Shown here one piece after another: positions 1 to 9,212 of a stretch of 64,000 bases of DNA (positions within the stretch are counted from its first letter, which is position 1; each line of letters begins with the position of its first letter). The notes under the pieces were generated by a model. That model was given only the letters and a program-made list of their open reading frames with translations, was not told the DNA's origin and searched no databases. The stretch lies in assembly GCA_947625735.1 (NCBI GenBank), contig CANQPL010000006.1, positions 38,844-102,843 of the forward strand, written 5' to 3'. The position numbers and the translations under genes are program-made. This stretch comes from an uncultured Clostridia bacterium (GTDB lineage: Bacteria; Bacillota; Clostridia; Oscillospirales; Ruminococcaceae).

Positions 1-155
1 ATGATCCTGCCAATTCCGAATATGCCGTTATGTACAGCCGCGGCGAAGAAAGAAAAGGATCATGCTTTGTGACGGCACTGAAGATCATTGCGGTGGTGGG
101 TCTTGTATTTATTGGTTTGTATGCATTGCTGCTGTTTTCGGTTTTATTTATTTAG
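1..155 (+). CDS. 3' end of a gene cut by the window edge; C-terminal membrane anchor (possibly a J-domain/TPR protein)
   Basis: Frame from nt 3 reads DPANSEYAVMYSRGEERKGSCFVTALKIIAVVGLVFIGLYALLLFSVLFI* with TAG at 153-155 and a hydrophobic C-terminal helix. Confidence 0.5.
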   Translation, partial: DPANSEYAVMYSRGEERKGSCFVTALKIIAVVGLVFIGLYALLLFSVLFI

Positions 156-237
156 TTATTTTTATCGGAAAAGTAAGCCGCTCCGGTGTAATAATTCAGA
201 TTCTGAAAAATCCTGCTTATAAAAAGGAGTAGTATAT

Positions 238-1098
238 ATGAGCGCAAAATTCGGACCCGCAGGAACTGCGGAAAGCTTTAAGACAATGGGTTATAAAAAG
301 TCGGTACAGCTTCCTGATTATCTGAAAAAATTCGGACTGGATCATTTTGAGTATCAGTGCGGACAGGGAGTGAGGATATCCGAGGCTGCCGCTAATGAGA
401 TAGGAGAGGCGTTCCGTCAGAACGGCATGACCCTTTCTCTCCACGCCCCTTATTTTATATCCCTTTCGGGTACAGATGAGGAAAAGCGTTTAGGCTCGGT
501 GCGGTACATATTGGAATCTGCAAGGGCGGCAAAAGCAATGGGCGCAGAGAGAATAGTTATCCACAGCGGTTCATGTTCAAAAATTTCCCGCACAGAGGCT
601 CTGGAGCTTGCAAAGGACACTATGAAGAGGGCAAGAGCGGCGCTTATTTCCGAGGGTCTGGGCGATATTATATGCTGTCCTGAGACTATGGGAAAGGTAA
701 ATCAGCTGGGTACTCTGGAAGAGGTGATCGAGCTTTGCAAAATAGATGACAGCTTTCTTCCCACAGTGGATTTCGGACATTTAAATGCCCGCACATTCGG
801 TAGTATCAGGACAAAACAGAATTATAAGGAAATGCTCGATAAACTGGAAAACGGTCTTGGCAGAGAAAGGGCAAGGGTTTTTCACAGCCATTTTTCCAAA
901 ATTGAATTTACGGAAAAGGGCGGGGAAAAGCGGCATCTGACATTTGAGGAGAATAACGGCTTTGGTCCTGATTTTGAGCCGCTTATGGAGCTTATTTATG
1001 AGCGTGACTGGTCACCTGTGTTCATCTGCGAAAGTGCAGGTACCCAGACCGAGGACGCACAGAAAATGAAAAGCTATTATGAGGGACTTTCGGGATAA
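238..1098 (+). CDS. nfo: Endonuclease IV-like TIM-barrel AP endonuclease (family 2)
   Basis: Metal-ligand motifs HAPYFISL, VIHSG, ETMG, DFGH, HSHFS..E...GEKRH; RBS AAGGAG upstream. Confidence 0.75.
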   Translation: MSAKFGPAGTAESFKTMGYKKSVQLPDYLKKFGLDHFEYQCGQGVRISEAAANEIGEAFRQNGMTLSLHAPYFISLSGTDEEKRLGSVRYILESARAAKAMGAERIVIHSGSCSKISRTEALELAKDTMKRARAALISEGLGDIICCPETMGKVNQLGTLEEVIELCKIDDSFLPTVDFGHLNARTFGSIRTKQNYKEMLDKLENGLGRERARVFHSHFSKIEFTEKGGEKRHLTFEENNGFGPDFEPLMELIYERDWSPVFICESAGTQTEDAQKMKSYYEGLSG

Positions 1099-1287
1099 TG
1101 ACGAAAGGAATATACATGAGGTACGCTGAAAATATTCTTTACGGCAGATTTTTACTGTTCCGTATAATTTTGAATTTTATCACAGCTTATAAATTTACAG
1201 AATTTTTTTCGCAGAGCCGTATTTTCTGCTTTTGATAAAAAACTGAAAATGCCCCGATTTTCAAGTGCTTTAAAATATTTGCAAATG

Positions 1288-1312
1288 GCGTGTCGGAATT
1301 ATACCGACACGC
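1288..1312. terminator. Hairpin terminator between the convergent nfo and toxin operons
   Basis: GCGTGTCGG-AATTATA-CCGACACGC followed by TGTATTTTTT on + strand. Confidence 0.6.
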
Positions 1313-1323
1313 TGTATTTTTCA

Positions 1324-1851
1324 TCACTTTAAAATGATTGAAAGGTATCTTCCGTTAAAATACTCACCCAGTCCATCTGAGCCGGTTGGTGTGTATTTGG
1401 CTACCGTATTCACATTGGGTAAAACGAGATTATGAGAAGACAAAATTTCAATTGTTCTTTCAATAGGCGGCATTGTGTCAGGCGCACCGCTTTCAACTGT
1501 TGTATATGCGTAAGCCATAGCAATGTCATAAATGCTTTTCATCAATACATTCAAATCACGGTCGGTTGCATTAAGAATACTTGTAAATAAATCATACTCT
1601 TCTTTCTTTAGATACTCAAAATTGGATTCCTCGTAGCTTTTGAACTCAAACAAGCATTCCGGTACAATTTCAATATATCTGTAAGAGCTTTCATCAAGGT
1701 AATTGCTGCCGTCAATAATACTCCACATTACCTCTGCAACAGGAGAAAAATCAACATTGGGATAAACAGTAACCGCATATTTTTCAAAACACATAATCGC
1801 ATAGGCAACTCTGCCTAACACAGATACATTTTTAAGTCTTTCTATTGACAT
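1324..1851 (-). CDS. Putative immunity protein, paralog 2 (helical, Imm6-like by context)
   Basis: 175 aa, clear paralog of 1864-2394 (GRxAYxIxCFE, MWS, YRYxEIVPECLFE, YDIAMxYAY); RBS AAGGAG; AT-rich; last gene after the toxin. Confidence 0.65.
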   Translation of the reverse strand: MSIERLKNVSVLGRVAYAIMCFEKYAVTVYPNVDFSPVAEVMWSIIDGSNYLDESSYRYIEIVPECLFEFKSYEESNFEYLKKEEYDLFTSILNATDRDLNVLMKSIYDIAMAYAYTTVESGAPDTMPPIERTIEILSSHNLVLPNVNTVAKYTPTGSDGLGEYFNGRYLSIILK

Positions 1852-1863
1852 GAGAGCATCTCC

Positions 1864-2394
1864 TTAATATAAAAGCATATTTGAAATGCTTTTCGGATCA
1901 AGGCAATGCCCCCAACCTTCTGATTCAGAAAATCGGCTCATACTAACCTTGCCAATATCGGGTAACGAAATAGCATTGTTATTTAGAATTGCAATTACTT
2001 TATCCAAGTATTCATAGGTATCTTTGCCATGGTCGGTGATGTTGGTATAAGCATACTCCATGGCAATGTCATATACACTCATCATGATTGCATTTAGATC
2101 AGGATCATCGCTGTTAAGTATCTTTGTGAACCTGTTGTACTCATCTTCTGTTAGTTTGTCAAAAACATCTGCGGAATAGTGATCCTTTTCAAACAGACAT
2201 TCTGGCACAATTTCAAGATACCTGTATGCACTGTTATCAATGTAATCAGATGAATCAACTACCGACCACATCATCTTGAGAACAGGCTGCATATCAATAT
2301 CAGGATATTTCACCTTGACATAATTCTCAAAGCAGAGGATAACATAGGCAATGCGACCTCTGATTGATAAATCAACAAAATTATTACTGTTCAT
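1864..2394 (-). CDS. Putative cognate immunity protein, paralog 1
   Basis: 176 aa, starts 2 nt after toxin stop with RBS inside toxin 3' end; small, acidic, AT-rich, as typical of toxin-adjacent immunity genes. Confidence 0.7.
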   Translation of the reverse strand: MNSNNFVDLSIRGRIAYVILCFENYVKVKYPDIDMQPVLKMMWSVVDSSDYIDNSAYRYLEIVPECLFEKDHYSADVFDKLTEDEYNRFTKILNSDDPDLNAIMMSVYDIAMEYAYTNITDHGKDTYEYLDKVIAILNNNAISLPDIGKVSMSRFSESEGWGHCLDPKSISNMLLY

Positions 2395-2396
2395 AA

Positions 2397-2891
2397 TTAC
2401 TCTCCTTTATGCCAGCCGGTATTGTTCTTCTTTATTTTTCCTTTGTAAGTCATCGTACAGTTTTTGCAAGAGACTTTTGTATTTCCGAAGCCTTTTTCAG
2501 AAGTGTAAATTGTGTAAATATGCAAATTATGAAGTTTAGCACCACCATGTAATGCACGGTTAACTGCATCGGATTCTGAACAATTCCATGGAGTAGGATA
2601 ATCATTTTGAGAAGATGAAGGCAATAGCTTTTTTAAGTCAGGGTGAATTTCATCTCCGAACTTATCTATACCGCCGTTTCTTCCAAAATATAGATCACCA
2701 GTTTCTTCATCAAATGCCACTGTAGCAGTATTAAACTTCTTGCGCTGCGTGGTAGATTTAGGATCAAGAACGGAGAGGACACTGTTTGTCCAATAAATTA
2801 ACTTGGCTCTTTGATTTTCAGGCTTAATACCCTGTGCAATTTTCTCTCCTCTGGTGCCTGAAAACTGATGACTGTTTGTTTTACTCATCAC
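2397..2891 (-). CDS. YwqJ-like Zn-dependent nucleic-acid deaminase toxin domain with short N-terminal leader
   Basis: AFDEETGDLYFGRN...IHPDLKKLLP...WNCSESDAVNRALHGGA...SCKNC gives CxE plus CxxC deaminase ligands; ATG overlaps DUF4417 TGA (ATGA). Confidence 0.75.
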   Translation of the reverse strand: MMSKTNSHQFSGTRGEKIAQGIKPENQRAKLIYWTNSVLSVLDPKSTTQRKKFNTATVAFDEETGDLYFGRNGGIDKFGDEIHPDLKKLLPSSSQNDYPTPWNCSESDAVNRALHGGAKLHNLHIYTIYTSEKGFGNTKVSCKNCTMTYKGKIKKNNTGWHKGE

Positions 2892-3601
2892 TTCGCCCTC
2901 CCTGCAAAAAACCTGCTTGTTCTGCCGGGATAGGCAAGAATAGTTATGCCCTGTTCTTCAAGCTCCTTAAAACACTTGTAATTAGCCGAGCCGTAAACAA
3001 TGATCGTATGAGGGTGCAGCCGCCTTACTAACTCTTTCAACCCTTCTTCAAAGCGTTCACGGTCTGCAAGCTTACGTGGACTTCCACCAACAGTACCGAT
3101 AGCGACAACACTATTTTCGGGTATGCCGTCAAAACAATAGGAATATGTTTCCGGAGTACCCCAACGGACGTTGTTGATAACAGCATGACCACAGAGCGTA
3201 CCGAACCAATAGCCGAAAGCTCTCATACGGTACACATTCCACAACTTCAGCGGAAAGGGAAAATCCTGATAAAGTGAAAAGTCAGGCGTGATAATGCCGG
3301 CAAAGTGACTCAGTATCTTGTAAGCGTGACCGGAGCGAAACCATATCCCCTTAAAAGAGTCAAAATCACCGTCATCTTCATAGAAACAAACGTAGGCAGG
3401 GCTTATAAAGTCCCTGTTATGCTTTCGCATCTCCTTGCGGTACAGCTCTCCTGCTTCCTTGTAGGTGAGGATATGTACAGGCACTCCGGTTGCAGTGGTC
3501 GGACAGAACGGAATATCGTTTGCCGAAAATTCTGCACCTGATACCATGTACGGTCTCCACCATACGTCCTTGATACCTTTGCGGATAATATTCAGTTTCA
3601 T
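2888..3601 (-). CDS. DUF4417 domain protein
   Basis: Motifs CFYEDDxDFD, ITPDFSLYxDFP, NVYRMR, NNVRWG, DGIP..VVAIGTVG match DUF4417 as I recall the family; SD AGGAGGT at 3613-3619. Confidence 0.75.
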   Translation of the reverse strand: MKLNIIRKGIKDVWWRPYMVSGAEFSANDIPFCPTTATGVPVHILTYKEAGELYRKEMRKHNRDFISPAYVCFYEDDGDFDSFKGIWFRSGHAYKILSHFAGIITPDFSLYQDFPFPLKLWNVYRMRAFGYWFGTLCGHAVINNVRWGTPETYSYCFDGIPENSVVAIGTVGGSPRKLADRERFEEGLKELVRRLHPHTIIVYGSANYKCFKELEEQGITILAYPGRTSRFFAGRAK

Positions 3602-3608
3602 TAAGATA

Positions 3609-3720
3609 CAATACCTCCTGAAAACATCGTCAGGGCATAAAATCCCTGTGGTTTTAGATGTTTCCGAAGTATTGCAGATCTGAATTGTCGAGGTTCCGAT
3701 GGCAATACCCGGAAAACATC
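3609..3720 (-). promoter_or_regulatory. Predicted translational switch in DUF4417 leader (anti-SD / anti-anti-SD)
   Basis: Segment 3675-3657 can pair with 3720-3702 (18/19 pairs incl. G-U) or with 3628-3609, which contains the SD (18 bp, 2-nt bulge). Confidence 0.65.
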
Positions 3721-3895
3721 AGCGAACTGCGCTATCGTTATTAACGATAGCAAAAAGTCAATAAACAGGAAAACTTTTCGTGTAAAATGCAGAGGTGATC
3801 AAACTGTGCAAATCGCCAAAAATGCACCCCGCCTATTGACATTTTTTTCGTAATATGCTACACTGAGATTGTCGAGGTTCCGGTAGCAATACCCG
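3684..3895 (+). repeat. 28-bp imperfect direct repeat (3684-3711 and 3868-3895)
   Basis: ATTGTCGAGGTTCCGATGGCAATACCCG vs ATTGTCGAGGTTCCGGTAGCAATACCCG, 26/28 identical. Confidence 0.95.
3836..3864 (+). promoter_or_regulatory. SigmaA promoter of putative sRNA
   Basis: TTGACA(3836-41)-17 bp-TACACT(3859-64) with extended -10 TG. Confidence 0.75.
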
Positions 3896-3938
3896 AACGG
3901 GCTGTGTTGGTCGCCTGAGCGGTCAGCACAGCTTTTTT
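3871..3938 (+). ncRNA. Putative ~70-nt antisense sRNA
   Basis: Lies between the promoter and a 14-bp terminator hairpin (3901-3932) plus T6; internal GGTA-GCAA-TACC GNRA hairpin; no ORF. Confidence 0.65.
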
Positions 3939-3952
3939 ATTTTCTACTTTCT

Positions 3953-3981
3953 ATTATACAATATAGCAAGAAAAATTGCAA
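3953..3981 (-). promoter_or_regulatory. SigmaA promoter of DUF4417-toxin operon (convergent with the sRNA promoter)
   Basis: TTGCAA(3981-76)-17 bp-TATAAT(3958-53) on minus strand. Confidence 0.65.
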
Positions 3982-4246
3982 TAGATAGTTTGGAAAAATT
4001 TTATATTTGACATTATTTCAGTGATTTTATCTTTAAATGTATTGAGCTTTTTTCGGGATATAATATATGATAAAATTGGAGGTGCAGAGCATGAATATAA
4101 TTTCTGCTGTAGAAAATACGGAGTCAATATTTCAGTTCAACAGTAGTCTTGCAGAGGACTTTTTTCAATAAGTAAAGCAAAGCGGAGCGAAAGCTGTCAT
4201 GAAAACAATGCTCCGGAATTTTTTTTGAAAATATTTTCAAAACCCC

Positions 4247-4275
4247 TTGACAAATACCCCGTGGGGGTATATAAT
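4247..4275 (+). promoter_or_regulatory. csoR-copA promoter with CsoR operator
   Basis: TTGACA-17-TATAAT; ATACCCC-GTG-GGGGTAT palindrome (4254-4270) in the spacer is the typical CsoR C/G-tract box. Confidence 0.85.
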
Positions 4276-4306
4276 ATATACAGAAGTTATGAAAGAGGCT
4301 GATAGT

Positions 4307-4615
4307 ATGGAAAAAGATAACAAGTGCGAGTGCTGTCATAAAACCAAACAGCGCGGGGAAGATGAGTATAAAGGGCTTATCAATCGTCTGAGCCGCATCG
4401 AGGGGCAGATAAGAGGTATAAAAAGCATGGTGGAAAACGATGCATATTGTACCGATATACTTACTCAGTCAGCGGCGGTGACGGCGGCGATGAATGCATT
4501 TAACAGAGAGCTTTTGTCAAACCATATACGCACCTGTGTTTCAGACGGCATAAGGAACGGCGATGATGAGGTGATAGAGGAGCTTCTTGATACGCTAAGA
4601 AAGCTGATGAAATAA
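4307..4615 (+). CDS. csoR: Copper-sensing repressor CsoR/RcnR family
   Basis: [28 protein letters not shown]...HIRTCV; start placed at ATG 4307 after RBS GAGG. Confidence 0.9.
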
Positions 4616-4632
4616 TATACGGGAGGATAGCT

Positions 4633-7161
4633 ATGGACAGATATGATGTTACGGGCATGAGCTGCGCTGCTTGTGTGGCAAGAGTGGAAAAAGCAGTCAA
4701 GGCTGTAAGCGGAGTGACCTCCTGCTCGGTAAATCTTCTTACAAATTCAATGATAGTGGAGGGTACAGCTCCGGTTTCCGCCATAACCTCCGCAGTGGAA
4801 AAGGCAGGATACGGCGCAAAACGCAGGGGAGATAAGGCAGCAGGTGAGGGGGGCGATCCTCTTGCAGACAAGGAAACACCTCTGCTTAAAAAGCGGGTAA
4901 TATGGTCACTGGTATTTCTGGCGGTGCTGATGTACATTTCTATGGGTCATATGATGTGGGGCTGGAGACTGCCCGCCTTTTTTGAGGGAAATCATGTTGC
5001 AGTGGGTCTTTTGCAGCTTCTGCTGACCCTTGCCATTATGGAGATAAATCGTAAATTCTTCATCAACGGTTTTAAAAGCCTGTGGAACCGTTCTCCGAAT
5101 ATGGATACACTTGTAGCTATGGGAGCGTCTGCCGCATTCGGTTACAGTCTTTACGCTCTTTTTGCCATGACAGGCGCACAGGCAAGAGGAGATGCCCAAG
5201 CGGTAATGGGATATATGCACGAATTTTATTTTGAATCGGCAGGCACGATACTTTCACTTATCACTGTTGGAAAAATGCTTGAAGCCCGCTCCAAAGGCAA
5301 GACTACCGATGCTCTGAAAAGCCTTGTAAGTCTTGCCCCGAAAACTGCAAATGTTATAAGAAACGGTAATGAGATCACCATTGCCGCAGAGGAGCTTGAA
5401 AAGGGAGATATTTTTGCAGTACGCCCCGGTGAGAGTATTCCCGCAGACGGAAGAGTGATCGAGGGAAGCAGTGCTGTAAACGAATCTGCGCTTACGGGAG
5501 AAAGTATTCCCGTTGACAAGGAGATAGGCGACAGGGTAAGCGCAGCCACCATAAATCAGTCGGGCTTTTTAAAGTGCGAGGCTGTCAGAGTGGGGGAGGA
5601 TACCGCTCTTTCCGAAATAATCCGTATGGTAAGTGATGCGGCAGCCACCAAAGCACCTATTGCAAAGACTGCCGACAAGGTAGCGGGAGTGTTCGTTCCC
5701 GCCGTGATCGGCATTGCGGCAGTTACGACCGCAGTCTGGCTCATAGTCGGACAGACTGTGGGATTTGCACTGGCAAGGGGCATATCCGTTCTTGTGATAA
5801 GCTGTCCCTGCGCTCTGGGACTTGCTACGCCTGTTGCAATTATGGTAGGCAGCGGCATGGGCGCTAAAAACGGCATACTCTTTAAGACTGCTTCCGCTCT
5901 TGAATCCGCAGGAAAGACTGAAATTGCCGTTCTGGATAAAACAGGCACTATTACAAGCGGCACTCCCGAAGCTGTAGACATAATTCCCGCAGAGGGCGTA
6001 ACGGAGAGTGAACTGTTAAAAGCTGCCTGCTCACTGGAGAAAAGAAGCGAGCATCCTCTTGCGGGAGCGGTCACAAGGCTGGGAGAAGCAAGTGGCGTGA
6101 AAATTTCCGATGCCGAAAATTTTTTGGCTCACCCGGGAAACGGACTTTCCGCAATGATAGACGGCAGAGAAATAACAGGCGGCAGCATGAAATTTATCGG
6201 CAGCAGGATAGATATTCCAAAAGATATTATTACAGCGGCGGATAAGCTGTCTGCCGAAGGAAAAACTCCTCTGCTTTTCTGTGAAAACGGAAAGCTGCTC
6301 GGCATGATAAGCGCCGCAGATCAGATAAGAGAGGACAGTGCAGAAGCTATAGGACAGCTTAAAAAAATGGGTATCCGCACTGTTATGCTCACAGGTGATA
6401 ATGAACGCACCGCCGCTGCCGTGGGCAGGCAGGCAGGCGTGGACGAGATAGTTGCAGGTGTTCTTCCCGACGGAAAGGAAAGCGTTATAAGGCGTCTTAA
6501 AAATGAGGGCAGGGTTGCCATGATAGGTGACGGTATAAACGATGCTCCCGCTCTTACCGCAGCCGATATCGGTATTGCCATAGGCGCAGGTACAGATGTA
6601 GCAATTGATGCCGCAGATGTGGTCCTGATGAAAAGCCGTCTTTCTGATGTACCCGCAGCTGTCAGACTCAGCCGCAGAGTGCTGCGCAATATCAAAGAGA
6701 ATCTTTTCTGGGCGTTTATTTATAATGTAATAGGTATCCCCCTTGCGGCAGGAGTATGGATACCCCTGTTCGGCTGGCAATTAAATCCCATGTTCGGGGC
6801 TGCTGCTATGAGCCTTTCCAGCTTCTGTGTGGTGACAAATGCTCTGCGGCTCAATCTTATTGACGTTCACGATTCTCGGAGGGATCATGCCCTGAAAAAG
6901 CATACATCCTCTGAGAGTGTGAAAATAAATCATGAAAAGGAGAAAAAGACCATGACAAAAACTATGAAGATCGAAGGTATGATGTGCGGACACTGTGAGG
7001 CGACTGTTAAAAAAGCTCTTGAAGCAGTAACGGGCGTGTCCTCCGCCGAGGTAAGCCATGAAAAGGGTACGGCTGTAGTAACTCTTGCTTCTGATGTGGA
7101 AAACAGCGTTCTTACAAAGGCTGTTGAGGATAAGGAATATAAAGTCCTCGGTATTGAATAA
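4633..7161 (+). CDS. copA: Cu(I)-translocating P1B-type ATPase with N- and C-terminal HMA domains
   Basis: [31 protein letters not shown], MxxSS, C-terminal GMMCGHC. Confidence 0.95.
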
Positions 7162-7181
7162 CAGCCGATCCGCAAAAAAAG

Positions 7182-7226
7182 ACCGTTCCCGCAGCTGTGG
7201 CTGATCGTCACTTCTGCGGGAACGGT
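7182..7226. terminator. Bidirectional terminator
   Basis: ACCGTTCCCGCAG...CTGCGGGAACGGT flanked by A and T tracts, between convergent genes. Confidence 0.8.
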
Positions 7227-7301
7227 TTTTGTTTTTTTTCCTGCTTATTAAATAGACATATTTGTGAACGCTGTTATAAATAATGTATCGGTCAGAGCAT
7301 A

Positions 7302-9212
7302 TCAGCTCAGTTCAAACATACCCGTATACAGCTGATAATACTTGCCCTTGTCGGCGATGAGTTTATCGTGGTCGCCTCTTTCGATTATTTTTCCAAGTTC
7401 AAGCACCATAATAGCGTTGGAATTTCTTACGGTGGAAAGTCTGTGAGCGATAACAAATACCGTTCTGCCCTCCATAAGACTGTCCATTCCCTTTTCGATA
7501 AGCGCTTCGGTACGGGTATCAATTGAGGAGGTAGCCTCGTCAAGTATGAGTACAGGAGGATCGGCTACTGCTGCTCTGGCAATTGCAAGGAGCTGTCTTT
7601 GTCCCTGTGACAGATTAGAGCCGTCAGAATAGAGCATAGTGTTGTATCCTTCGGGCAGCCTGCGTATAAAGCTGTCGGCATTGGCGAGCTTTGCAGCTGC
7701 AATAACGTCATCATCTGTCGCATCGAGCTTTCCGTAGCGTATATTGTCTGCAACAGTGCCTGTAAACAGATGCGTATCCTGAAGCACCATTGACAGGGAA
7801 CGCCTGAGATCGTCCTTTTTTATCTTGTTGATGTTGATGCCGTCATAGCGTATTTTTCCGTCAGGTACGTCATAGAAGCGGTTGATAAGATTTGTGATAG
7901 TGGTTTTGCCCGCACCCGTAGAGCCTACAAATGCTATTTTCTGACCGGGCTTTGCGTAAAGTGATATACCGTTGAGAACGGTTTTATTGGGTTCATAACC
8001 GAATGTCACATCGTCAAATTCCACTCGTCCCTCAACCTTGGTGTAGGTAATTGTACCCTCAGCCTTGTGGGGGTGTTTCCATGCCCATGCGCCCGTGCGC
8101 TTTTCGCTTTCGGTAATTGTGCCGTCAGGGGCAATATTGGCATTTACAAGGGTAACATATCCCTCATCTGTTTCGGAAGGCTCATCTATCATGCCGAATA
8201 TTCTTTCTGCGCCTGCAAGAGCGGAAAGCACAGCATTAAACTGCATGGATACCTGCGAAATGGGCATTGTAAAGCTCCTTGTGTACATAAGGAACGCTAC
8301 AACTGTGCCTATCTGTATAGGACCTGCAAAGCCCGATGCTCCCTGTATTGCCAGCAGTCCTCCGATCACCGCAGTAATGGCGTACTGGATATGACCTAAG
8401 TTATTGTTTACAGGACCTAAGATATTTGCAAAGGTATTTGCATTTGTGGCAGCCTTGCGGAGATTTTCGTTAAGCTCGTCAAATTCCGCTTTGGAGATGC
8501 CCTCATGAACAAAGACTTTTACAACCTTCTGACCGTCGATCATTTCCTCAATGTAGCCGTTTACCGCACCCAGAGCCTTCTGCTGCTCCTTAAAGTATTT
8601 TCCGCTGCGGCTGCCGATAAATCCCGTCACAAAGACAACTATCACAAACATTACAAGTGTGAGCAGTGTAAGCTGCCAGCTGTAGTATATCATCATGGCA
8701 AGCACGCCGATAACCGTTACAAGTGATGAGATAAAGCTGGAAATGGAGTTTGAAAGCATTTCTCTGATAGTGTCGATATCGTTTGTAAAGCGGCTCATCA
8801 GATCTCCGTGAGTATGTGTATCGAAATATCTGATAGGCAGTGTTTCCATATGCGTGAAAAGATCAGTTCTGATCTTAAGCAGCGTTTTGGTTGAAATGCT
8901 GAGCATTATCCTTGCAAATCCGAATGTACAAAGCGCTCCCGCACCGTATATGGAAAGCATCTGTAAAAGAGTTTTTATAAATCCGCTGCGCAGAGCAGGA
9001 TCCTCGCCGTTTTCCGCAAGAGGTGTGATGTAATTGTCAATGAGCCTTTGCAGGAATGAATTTCCGATAATTCCCGCAAGGGAGCTGCATATGATGAATA
9101 TTACCACAAGAACAAGCAGCGGAGCATATTTTGACATATAGCTGAACACTCTTTTGAGAGTGGCAGCTGCGTTTTTTGGCTTTGAAACAGCCATAGGTCT
9201 GCGTGGAGGCAT
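7302..9212 (-). CDS. ABC exporter permease/ATPase, subunit B of heterodimer
   Basis: TMD plus NBD with GSTGAGKTT, LSQGQ, ILDEATS, IAHRL. Confidence 0.9.
   Translation of the reverse strand: MPPRRPMAVSKPKNAAATLKRVFSYMSKYAPLLVLVVIFIICSSLAGIIGNSFLQRLIDNYITPLAENGEDPALRSGFIKTLLQMLSIYGAGALCTFGFARIMLSISTKTLLKIRTDLFTHMETLPIRYFDTHTHGDLMSRFTNDIDTIREMLSNSISSFISSLVTVIGVLAMMIYYSWQLTLLTLVMFVIVVFVTGFIGSRSGKYFKEQQKALGAVNGYIEEMIDGQKVVKVFVHEGISKAEFDELNENLRKAATNANTFANILGPVNNNLGHIQYAITAVIGGLLAIQGASGFAGPIQIGTVVAFLMYTRSFTMPISQVSMQFNAVLSALAGAERIFGMIDEPSETDEGYVTLVNANIAPDGTITESEKRTGAWAWKHPHKAEGTITYTKVEGRVEFDDVTFGYEPNKTVLNGISLYAKPGQKIAFVGSTGAGKTTITNLINRFYDVPDGKIRYDGININKIKKDDLRRSLSMVLQDTHLFTGTVADNIRYGKLDATDDDVIAAAKLANADSFIRRLPEGYNTMLYSDGSNLSQGQRQLLAIARAAVADPPVLILDEATSSIDTRTEALIEKGMDSLMEGRTVFVIAHRLSTVRNSNAIMVLELGKIIERGDHDKLIADKGKYYQLYTGMFELS

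Follow-up and report, generated by a model that had tools for sequence, protein, structure and literature searches.

Polymorphic toxin systems with orphan cassettes, among them CdiA-CT/CdiI, Rhs, LXG, and MafB, were reportedly described by Zhang et al. in 2012, and polymorphic toxins of temperate phages that carry a MuF domain are said to have been described by Jamet et al. in 2017. Deaminase toxins are known from YwqJ/YwqK of Bacillus subtilis, DddA, and SsdA; RNA control of type I toxin–antitoxin (TA) genes is exemplified by tisB/istR-1 and by the par (Fst/RNA II) locus of pAD1; and colicin operons bring together SOS-induced toxin, immunity, and release genes. Here we describe a locus that shares features with all of these. 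It lies in a 64,000-nt stretch (hereafter, the window) of an uncultured Clostridia bacterium of the Ruminococcaceae (contig CANQPL010000006.1, positions 38,844 to 102,843; assembly GCA_947625735.1, a rabbit-gut metagenome-assembled genome) and consists of four coupled open reading frames (ORFs) on the minus strand, which encode a DUF4417 protein, a toxin candidate, and two acidic paralogs (Y1 and Y2). Comparison with related loci firmly supports a polymorphic class, defined by DUF4417 and an N-terminal toxin tag, with recombinational exchange and a dedicated predicted antisense small RNA (sRNA). The best full explanation of the locus, which we consider moderately probable, is that it is a polymorphic toxin–immunity cassette of this DUF4417-headed class.

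A conserved tag and interchangeable putative toxins follow DUF4417

We collected 80 genome loci through a scan with a DUF4417 alignment, keeping one genome per species, and added the window and the paralogs in its own genome; 84 full-length DUF4417 loci were examined. These came mainly from rumen and gut Clostridia (Ruminococcus, Oscillospiraceae, Lachnospiraceae, and Mogibacterium). Chaining of ORFs placed a gene that overlaps or abuts DUF4417 in nearly every locus, with a further gene tightly behind it. The product of the first of these genes opens with a 14-residue tag, MSK[GS]xSGLFxGTxG, in at least 76 of the 84 loci, and the sequences diverge completely after it. Stripped of the tag, the putative toxins (96–212 aa long) fell into 17 unrelated families, with Pfam matches to PBECR1 (11), YwqJ-deaminase (8), Ntox50 (5), Tox-GHH (4), and Prok-JAB (4) and, more rarely, to AHH (2), Ntox37 (2), Peptidase_C80 (2), and LHH (1). 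The second downstream proteins, most of which had no Pfam match, formed 23 families in near one-to-one pairing with the 17 toxin families.

Judged by this comparison, the product encoded after DUF4417 is a predicted modular toxin composed of the tag and an interchangeable killing domain, and the first partner protein appears to be specific to its toxin family. A first-pass annotation, made from the letters of the window, had proposed DUF4417 as the conserved head of a compact toxin module and suggested tabulating the genes downstream from its homologs; the tabulation recovered variable toxin domains together with co-varying partners, in line with that proposal. The codons of the tag vary synonymously (four Gly, five Leu, and four Thr codons are in use), so selection acts on the peptide. 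The conserved ATGAGTAAA yields stop codons in both other frames too, and the Shine-Dalgarno of the toxin gene sits within the C-terminal codons of DUF4417, which together indicate obligatory translational coupling.

At least six loci (L023, L040, L049, L071, L075, and L076) had 3′ fragments of DUF4417 further downstream, covering residues about 168/197–237 and followed by another MSK-tagged toxin. Some of these toxins were intact (L040 and L075) and others truncated, among them a decayed copy, in L023, of the deaminase family found in the window. The displaced fragments and their tagged toxins show that cassettes are swapped at the DUF4417–toxin junction, and such exchange accounts for the step in guanine–cytosine (GC) content at that boundary, where the whole-gene value drops from 0.468 (DUF4417) to 0.376 (toxin), with Y1 and Y2 at 0.363 and 0.364. 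Cassette swapping behind DUF4417 had been proposed in the first-pass annotation from spot GC counts that fall along the operon (29, 24, 20, and 17); all four counts were exact, and both the displaced fragments and the GC step agree with the proposal. By this comparison, exchange takes place through recombination in the conserved 3′ end of DUF4417 and the tag region. The window itself has an extra immunity paralog only and no orphan toxin cassette.

We considered whether the locus could be an ordinary two-gene TA addiction pair, with DUF4417 an unrelated enzyme that happens to share the operon. The deaminase and its partner can indeed stand alone: in L001 and L002 the pair, still tagged, is found without an adjacent DUF4417. 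DUF4417 encoded elsewhere might act in trans in these loci, or it may be dispensable. Nevertheless, adjacency of DUF4417 and toxin is near-universal and translationally coupled, the tag is kept in 17 toxin families that are otherwise unrelated and varies with the clade of DUF4417, and the recombination junctions lie inside DUF4417, which leaves the addiction pair a very improbable account.

Two loci with unusual arrangements were also noted. L004 (243-4152) has two tandem DUF4417 genes on one contig, each with an sRNA-like element ahead; the first is followed by a deaminase and its partner, whereas behind the second there are just a 46-aa ORF and, farther off, another ORF. A 376-aa DUF4417 homolog (P0067) was considered as a toxin fusion and rejected. 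Its upstream immunity-like ORF (MTLEEFQERYYFHDS...) runs into DUF4417, and the gene call probably reflects tandem cassettes, not a true fusion.

The window toxin is a predicted deaminase

The window toxin belongs to a family of 28 clusters (proteins of 160–174 aa), several of which match PF14431 (YwqJ-deaminase) or PF00383, and homologs 45%–63% identical to it carry precomputed matches to one or the other. Across tagged toxins, other loci included, PF14431 was matched by eight, with a best E-value of 2.6e-7. A 23-member alignment showed invariant N103, C104, E106, C142, N144, and C145, yielding the pattern CxE...CxxC, present in the core of the window toxin as NC104SE106 and C142KNC145. In the AlphaFold2 (AF2) model (predicted local distance difference test [pLDDT] 86.2, predicted template modeling score [pTM] 0.85), a helical linker joins the disordered N-terminus to the core, and the top 20 matches of the model in the PDB were all cytidine, blasticidin-S, or dCMP deaminases. 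These matches were modest but consistent (probability up to 1.0, best E = 3e-3, target-normalized template modeling [TM] score ∼0.5). A profile search of PDB sequences with the deaminase family returned nothing significant. The score of the window toxin itself against PF14431, 19 bits with a gathering cutoff of 25.9, counts against the assignment. From homologs, motifs, and predicted fold, we conclude that the window toxin probably adopts a deaminase fold, and the comparison identifies its putative killing domain as a zinc-dependent, YwqJ-like deaminase of the cytidine-deaminase fold. The earlier suggestion of a deaminase with CxE..CxxC is supported by the motif invariant in 23 sequences and by the predicted fold; whether the protein (164 aa in that annotation) has a deaminase fold had been named there as a check, and the model matches answer it positively.

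The two downstream proteins, Y1 and Y2, are paralogs with 43% identity. Wherever the deaminase family was examined, whether DUF4417 was present or not, the Y1 family came next, and Y2 is equally distant from Y1 and from homologous proteins at other loci. Y2 is probably an extra or orphan immunity gene; more generally, we infer that one of the two is cognate to the deaminase and that the other was acquired as an extra immunity gene. The toxin is basic (isoelectric point [pI] 9.4) and both partners are acidic (pI values of 4.4 and 4.5), a complementarity of charge. Two immunity genes had been predicted at the outset, a prediction consistent with an acidic partner family that co-varies with the deaminase family and is represented here by a 43% identical pair. 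A profile search of PDB sequences with the immunity family gave nothing significant, and a weak Sdh5/SdhE match of Y1 was discarded because it was below the cutoff and not common to the Y1 family.

DUF4417 may act on the tag

The window DUF4417 matches PF14386 with E = 6.8e-39 (133.7 bits, gathering cutoff 28.9) and is also matched by phrog_8680 and phrog_940. The family is large: length-matched candidates made 2,178 clusters when grouped at 90% identity, and a search at E ≤ 1e-3 found 2,073 clusters at 50%. Residues D29, C33, C72, D76, D77, D81, H99, D107, D113, R127, N143, N144, R146, W147, and G169–G173 are invariant or nearly so. The AF2 model (pLDDT 89.6, pTM 0.87) consists of alternating beta and alpha elements, with the conserved polar residues placed just after beta-strands. 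Because this is the usual position of the active site in alpha/beta enzymes, DUF4417 looks like an enzyme in the model. A Foldseek search of the model against the PDB found nothing at E < 0.001, with triosephosphate isomerase (TIM) barrels at TM scores of only 0.3–0.42, and a profile search of PDB sequences with DUF4417 found nothing significant. The sole match outside the family in BFVD was faint (E = 0.014), to a phage protein annotated as queuine tRNA-ribosyltransferase. Homology to TGT/DpdA was rejected: hhalign against an alignment of bacterial TGT gave 0.3% probability, and the top 50 PDB matches contained no TGT.

An association between DUF4417 and the tag emerged from the other modules. 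The window's own genome has four DUF4417 genes above the Pfam cutoff, each heading a cassette. On contig C26 (L014:3303-7562), XRE and ImmA genes are followed by DUF4417, a toxin starting MNHANSGLAHGTSG, and two paralogous partner genes; last comes an orphan toxin that lacks a tag and has a partner of its own. The toxin on C34 (L012:237-1899) starts MGSGKGG, and that on C22 (L013:5130-7571), with XRE and ImmA upstream, starts MGSRGAF. In viral contigs, phage-type DUF4417 (33%–42% identity) is followed by proteins starting MGGRG, MGSRS, MGRGS, or MGGNG, and two viral tags, MGGCAGGGGFGGTKG and MGGGRGAGFFAGTDG, have FxGTxG in common with the MSK tag. The type of tag changes with the DUF4417 clade, which is the main indirect argument that DUF4417 recognizes the tag. 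As an enzyme or an adaptor, DUF4417 would recognize the disordered tag and mature, activate, or hand over the toxin. The more specific proposal, that DUF4417 is an active enzyme on the tag (modifying it covalently, processing it, or coupling it to a carrier) in a new sRNA-gated pathway of toxin activation or delivery, is tentative, and we consider it rather unlikely. A fifth, sub-threshold DUF4417-like match in the same genome (20 bits; G000:C89:3130-3546, L015) lies in a 315-aa open frame.

The phage homologs raise a different possibility, in which DUF4417 loads tagged proteins onto phage DNA or particles and the chromosomal copies are domesticated or decaying remnants of phage cargo. The phage type of DUF4417, frequently a ParB fusion, is encoded close to terminase genes or at the ends of genomes; on viral contigs, as described above, its genes precede proteins with Gly-rich N-terminal tags; and a module of the window's own subfamily is present on a contig classed as viral (L148). 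However, the window has zero phage genes within 8 kb of the operon. Its subfamily is 55%–92% identical across genera with intact operons in many genomes and is therefore not decaying. We regard the cargo remnant as improbable. The module on L148 (4001-5200 of a 9.6-kb IMG/VR contig) has a DUF4417 81% identical to that of the window and a deaminase toxin starting MSKSDSHQFTGTKG.

A predicted antisense sRNA pairs with the operon leader

RNA control of the operon, likewise proposed in the first-pass annotation, is borne out by comparison, which points to a conserved, cis-encoded, predicted antisense sRNA that pairs with a target in the operon leader. The elements of its promoter are kept in 17 loci (−35 TTGAC, −10 TAYAAT), and RNAalifold on 16 loci predicted 19 pairs and found compensatory changes in 14. 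The leader contains a 28-nt direct repeat with 93% identity (3895-3868 and 3711-3684). In 12 loci, the target matches the template of the cognate sRNA at 24–29 of 30 positions and lies ∼100–130 nt upstream of the DUF4417 start. The differences between the copies favor those compatible with G·U pairing (25 A>G or C>T against seven G>A or T>C; binomial p = 0.002, with loci not fully independent). In an alignment with three other loci, both copies of the seed change together from locus to locus: GAACCTCGACA in the window, GAACTGTCGCA in C34, and GAACTTCGCAA in L061. C34 shares this two-copy pattern although its DUF4417 is only 29% identical to that of the window. Pairing of the antisense sRNA with its leader target explains the joint change of the two copies.

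The 380-nt leader is strongly structured (minimum free energy [MFE] z = −4.9). Its 3′ arm (3675-3657) can pair with either the 5′ arm (3720-3702) or the ribosome-binding region (3628-3606). The sRNA target overlaps the 5′ arm, so a bound sRNA would leave the 3′ arm free to sequester the ribosome-binding site, and the operon would stay silent until stress is signaled. When folds were computed with a blocked target, however, the degree to which that site is paired did not change consistently across loci.

Sister loci carry the sRNA with DUF4417 on one side and, on the other, XRE-ImmA, which is a fused gene in L020, L061, and L024; the window has the sRNA without the XRE-ImmA regulator. The exact 26-nt repeat occurs within the genome at this locus only, and relatives were found by profile searches. 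No Rfam family, the sRNA included, was matched within positions 1–8000 at E ≤ 1. A pattern scan of metagenomes for the sRNA gave 28 matches, all attributed to chance and none with a leader or DUF4417. Within the leader of the window (3731-3751) there is also a perfect 10-bp palindrome, GCTATCGTTA/TAACGATAGC, whose counterparts in L020 and C34 differ in sequence yet are palindromic; it may form a hairpin in the RNA or serve as the operator of a repressor.

Neighborhoods and the putative role of the module

We examined the neighborhoods of the DUF4417 modules for indications of what they do. XRE and ImmA/Peptidase_M78 genes are upstream of DUF4417 in ∼20 sister loci. ThsA_Macro (17) and ThsB_TIR (14), a Thoeris-like pair, lie divergent from DUF4417 among ∼80 loci, and these loci hold many different toxin cassettes; the adjacency could reflect a functional link or a shared island. 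A few loci have ABC-3C or AbiEii-like neighbors, and the window has no defense-gene neighbor. In the Thoeris-type loci (L043:3170-4785 and 16 others, e.g., L041, L051, L052, L070, L080, L081, L085, and L086), a ThsA with Macro of ∼365 aa and a ThsB-TIR of ∼170 aa are found 115–190 nt upstream of DUF4417. As to phages, DUF4417 is common in phages and prophages (bioRxiv 10.1101/2025.10.10.680097), and in the literature searched it appears only as a domain of unknown function listed in gene tables of phages and as a fusion partner of ParB-CTPase folds in prophages.

Two roles have to be weighed. Under the reading that we favor, a polymorphic toxin–immunity cassette, Y1 or Y2 would block the deaminase within the producer cell and the module would be deployed mainly against related bacteria; we place competition between bacteria a little short of an even chance. 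Several observations tell against such deployment, in addition to the tagged pairs that lack an adjacent DUF4417. The toxin has no export signal (neither signal peptide nor transmembrane segment), no secretion genes lie near the operon, the genome has neither of the type VII secretion system (T7SS) markers WXG100 and LXG, and the toxin has no LXG domain. The toxins are also too small to hold receptor-binding or translocation domains, and the Thoeris and XRE-ImmA neighbors together with the phage homologs suit an anti-phage role equally well.

That role would be abortive infection, with toxin and immunity protein as an intracellular TA pair and DUF4417, the third protein component, as a sensor or activator that would release the tagged toxin or switch it on upon infection or DNA damage. 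Besides the neighborhoods and the abundance of DUF4417 in phages, the lack of a visible export route for the toxin and an sRNA gate akin to type I TA control fit it. Against it, orphan cassettes and immunity-only paralogs typically mark arms races between bacteria and are seldom seen in abortive-infection TA systems, the toxins use domains known from secreted polymorphic toxins, and the window, besides having no defense gene beside the operon, gave zero matches to PADLOC models for all four operon proteins. An anti-phage system is a possible explanation that we nonetheless place well below an even chance.

Layout of the operon in the window

The features of the locus are collected in Table 1. 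Its four genes are as tightly coupled as first described, with intergenic gaps of 2 nt after the toxin gene and 12 nt after Y1. The junction between DUF4417 and the toxin gene reads GTGATGA: the toxin ATG at 2888, the consensus start of the family (MSK...), overlaps the first DUF4417 TGA by 1 nt and forms ATGA with the tandem second TGA, so the "ATGA overlap" of the first-pass annotation was essentially right. The flanks are also as reported there: the operon lies between nfo (AP_endonuc_2) and csoR-copA, and phage, integrase, and secretion genes are all absent within 8 kb of it. Insertion could not be demonstrated by an empty-site test, as the genes adjacent to nfo are non-syntenic in 10 genomes of the same genus. 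None of the four operon proteins has a hydrophobic segment or signal peptide, and an NCBIfam search of these proteins gave nothing useful. The candidate operon promoter is not conserved across other leaders, which makes the start of the operon mRNA uncertain. A perfect consensus promoter (TTGACA-17-TATAAT, plus strand, 4247-4275) is located ahead of csoR, divergent from the toxin operon.

Table 1. Sequence features of the DUF4417 locus (positions in the window)
Feature	Position	Strand	Basis or remark
DUF4417 protein, 237 aa, conserved head gene	2888..3601	-	PF14386 match
Tagged toxin, 163 aa	2397..2888	-	Tag, helical linker, predicted cytidine-deaminase-fold core
N-terminal tag of toxin, MSKTNSHQFSGTRG	2847-2888	-	Matches family tag MSK[GS]xSGLFxGTxG
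Immunity candidate Y1, 176 aa, pI 4.4	1864..2394	-	Tracks deaminase family
Immunity candidate Y2, 175 aa, pI 4.5	1324..1851	-	Y1 paralog
Terminator-like hairpin, operon end	1285..1315	.	Terminator scan
Candidate operon promoter, TTGCAA-17 nt-TATAAT	3953..3981	-	Promoter scan
sRNA promoter, TTGACA-17 nt-TACACT, upstream TG	3836..3864	+	Promoter scan; conserved in 17 loci
Predicted antisense sRNA, ∼75 nt	3870..3944	+	Terminator scan and comparative folding
sRNA 5′ seed	about 3870-3883	+	Variable between loci
sRNA hairpin 1, GCAA loop, 6 bp	3880-3895	+	GNRA-type loop
sRNA terminator stem, 13 bp	3899-3934	+	U-run 3935-3944 behind
sRNA target in leader, second seed and hairpin-1 copy	3683..3712	-	∼110 nt upstream of DUF4417 start
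Leader with alternative pairings	3606..3720	-	Repeats I1 and D7; MFE

Discussion

We found no publication that links DUF4417 to toxins, and the class, widespread in gut bacteria and their phages, is apparently undescribed. Polymorphic toxins are numerous in gut Bacillota, for the most part with no known means of delivery. According to a 2026 paper, most toxin-bearing gut Bacillota, such as Ruminococcus, have no known secretion system, and the DUF4417 system bears directly on the open question of how polymorphic toxins of gut Bacillota are delivered. Were DUF4417 an enzyme that acts on the tag, it would explain how Ruminococcus-type bacteria deploy polymorphic toxins without a T7SS, by a pathway common to gut Firmicutes and their phages. 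The system gives experiments a concrete starting point in a single conserved protein, a tag of 14 residues, and dozens of toxins that can be swapped. It also provides a first functional context for DUF4417, which in phages is fused to ParB-CTPase folds; a new pair of predicted sRNA and target, conserved between loci; and a family of very compact, stand-alone predicted deaminases whose substrate is worth determining.

Comparison with known systems

Like CDI, Rhs, LXG, and MafB systems, the class joins a conserved leading part to exchangeable toxin domains that belong to the same Pfam families, places a specific immunity gene directly downstream, includes extra immunity genes, and has displaced orphan modules that keep a piece of the conserved part, a signature of CDI and Rhs loci. 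It differs in that a 14-residue tag and a separate upstream protein of 237 aa take the place of a large N-terminal trafficking domain, and in that toxins of 96–212 aa come with no associated secretion system or signal. With MuF toxins it has in common a link to phages and variable C-terminal toxins with immunity genes in Firmicutes; unlike them, it has no MuF domain, DUF4417 is a separate polypeptide, and the chromosomal copy has no phage genes around it.

The predicted zinc-deaminase fold, the CxE...CxxC motif, and the adjacent immunity gene are shared with YwqJ/YwqK, DddA, and SsdA. In contrast to YwqJ, DddA, and SsdA, the window toxin is a stand-alone protein of 163 aa that falls below the PF14431 cutoff and is not the tip of an LXG or type VI secretion system effector. 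Like tisB/istR-1 and par, the locus has a small opposite-strand RNA, here predicted, beside the toxin operon, which would pair via a repeat ∼100 nt upstream of the start codon, and control linked to stress, here in sister loci; unlike them, its first controlled gene is DUF4417, not one for a small membrane peptide, and protein immunity genes are present. Finally, whereas colicins have receptor-binding and translocation domains and a lysis lipoprotein, the toxins here have no such domains and DUF4417 is a soluble, enzyme-like protein; what the locus shares with colicin operons is a compact set of toxin, immunity, and third protein, with damage-responsive XRE-ImmA regulation in sister loci.

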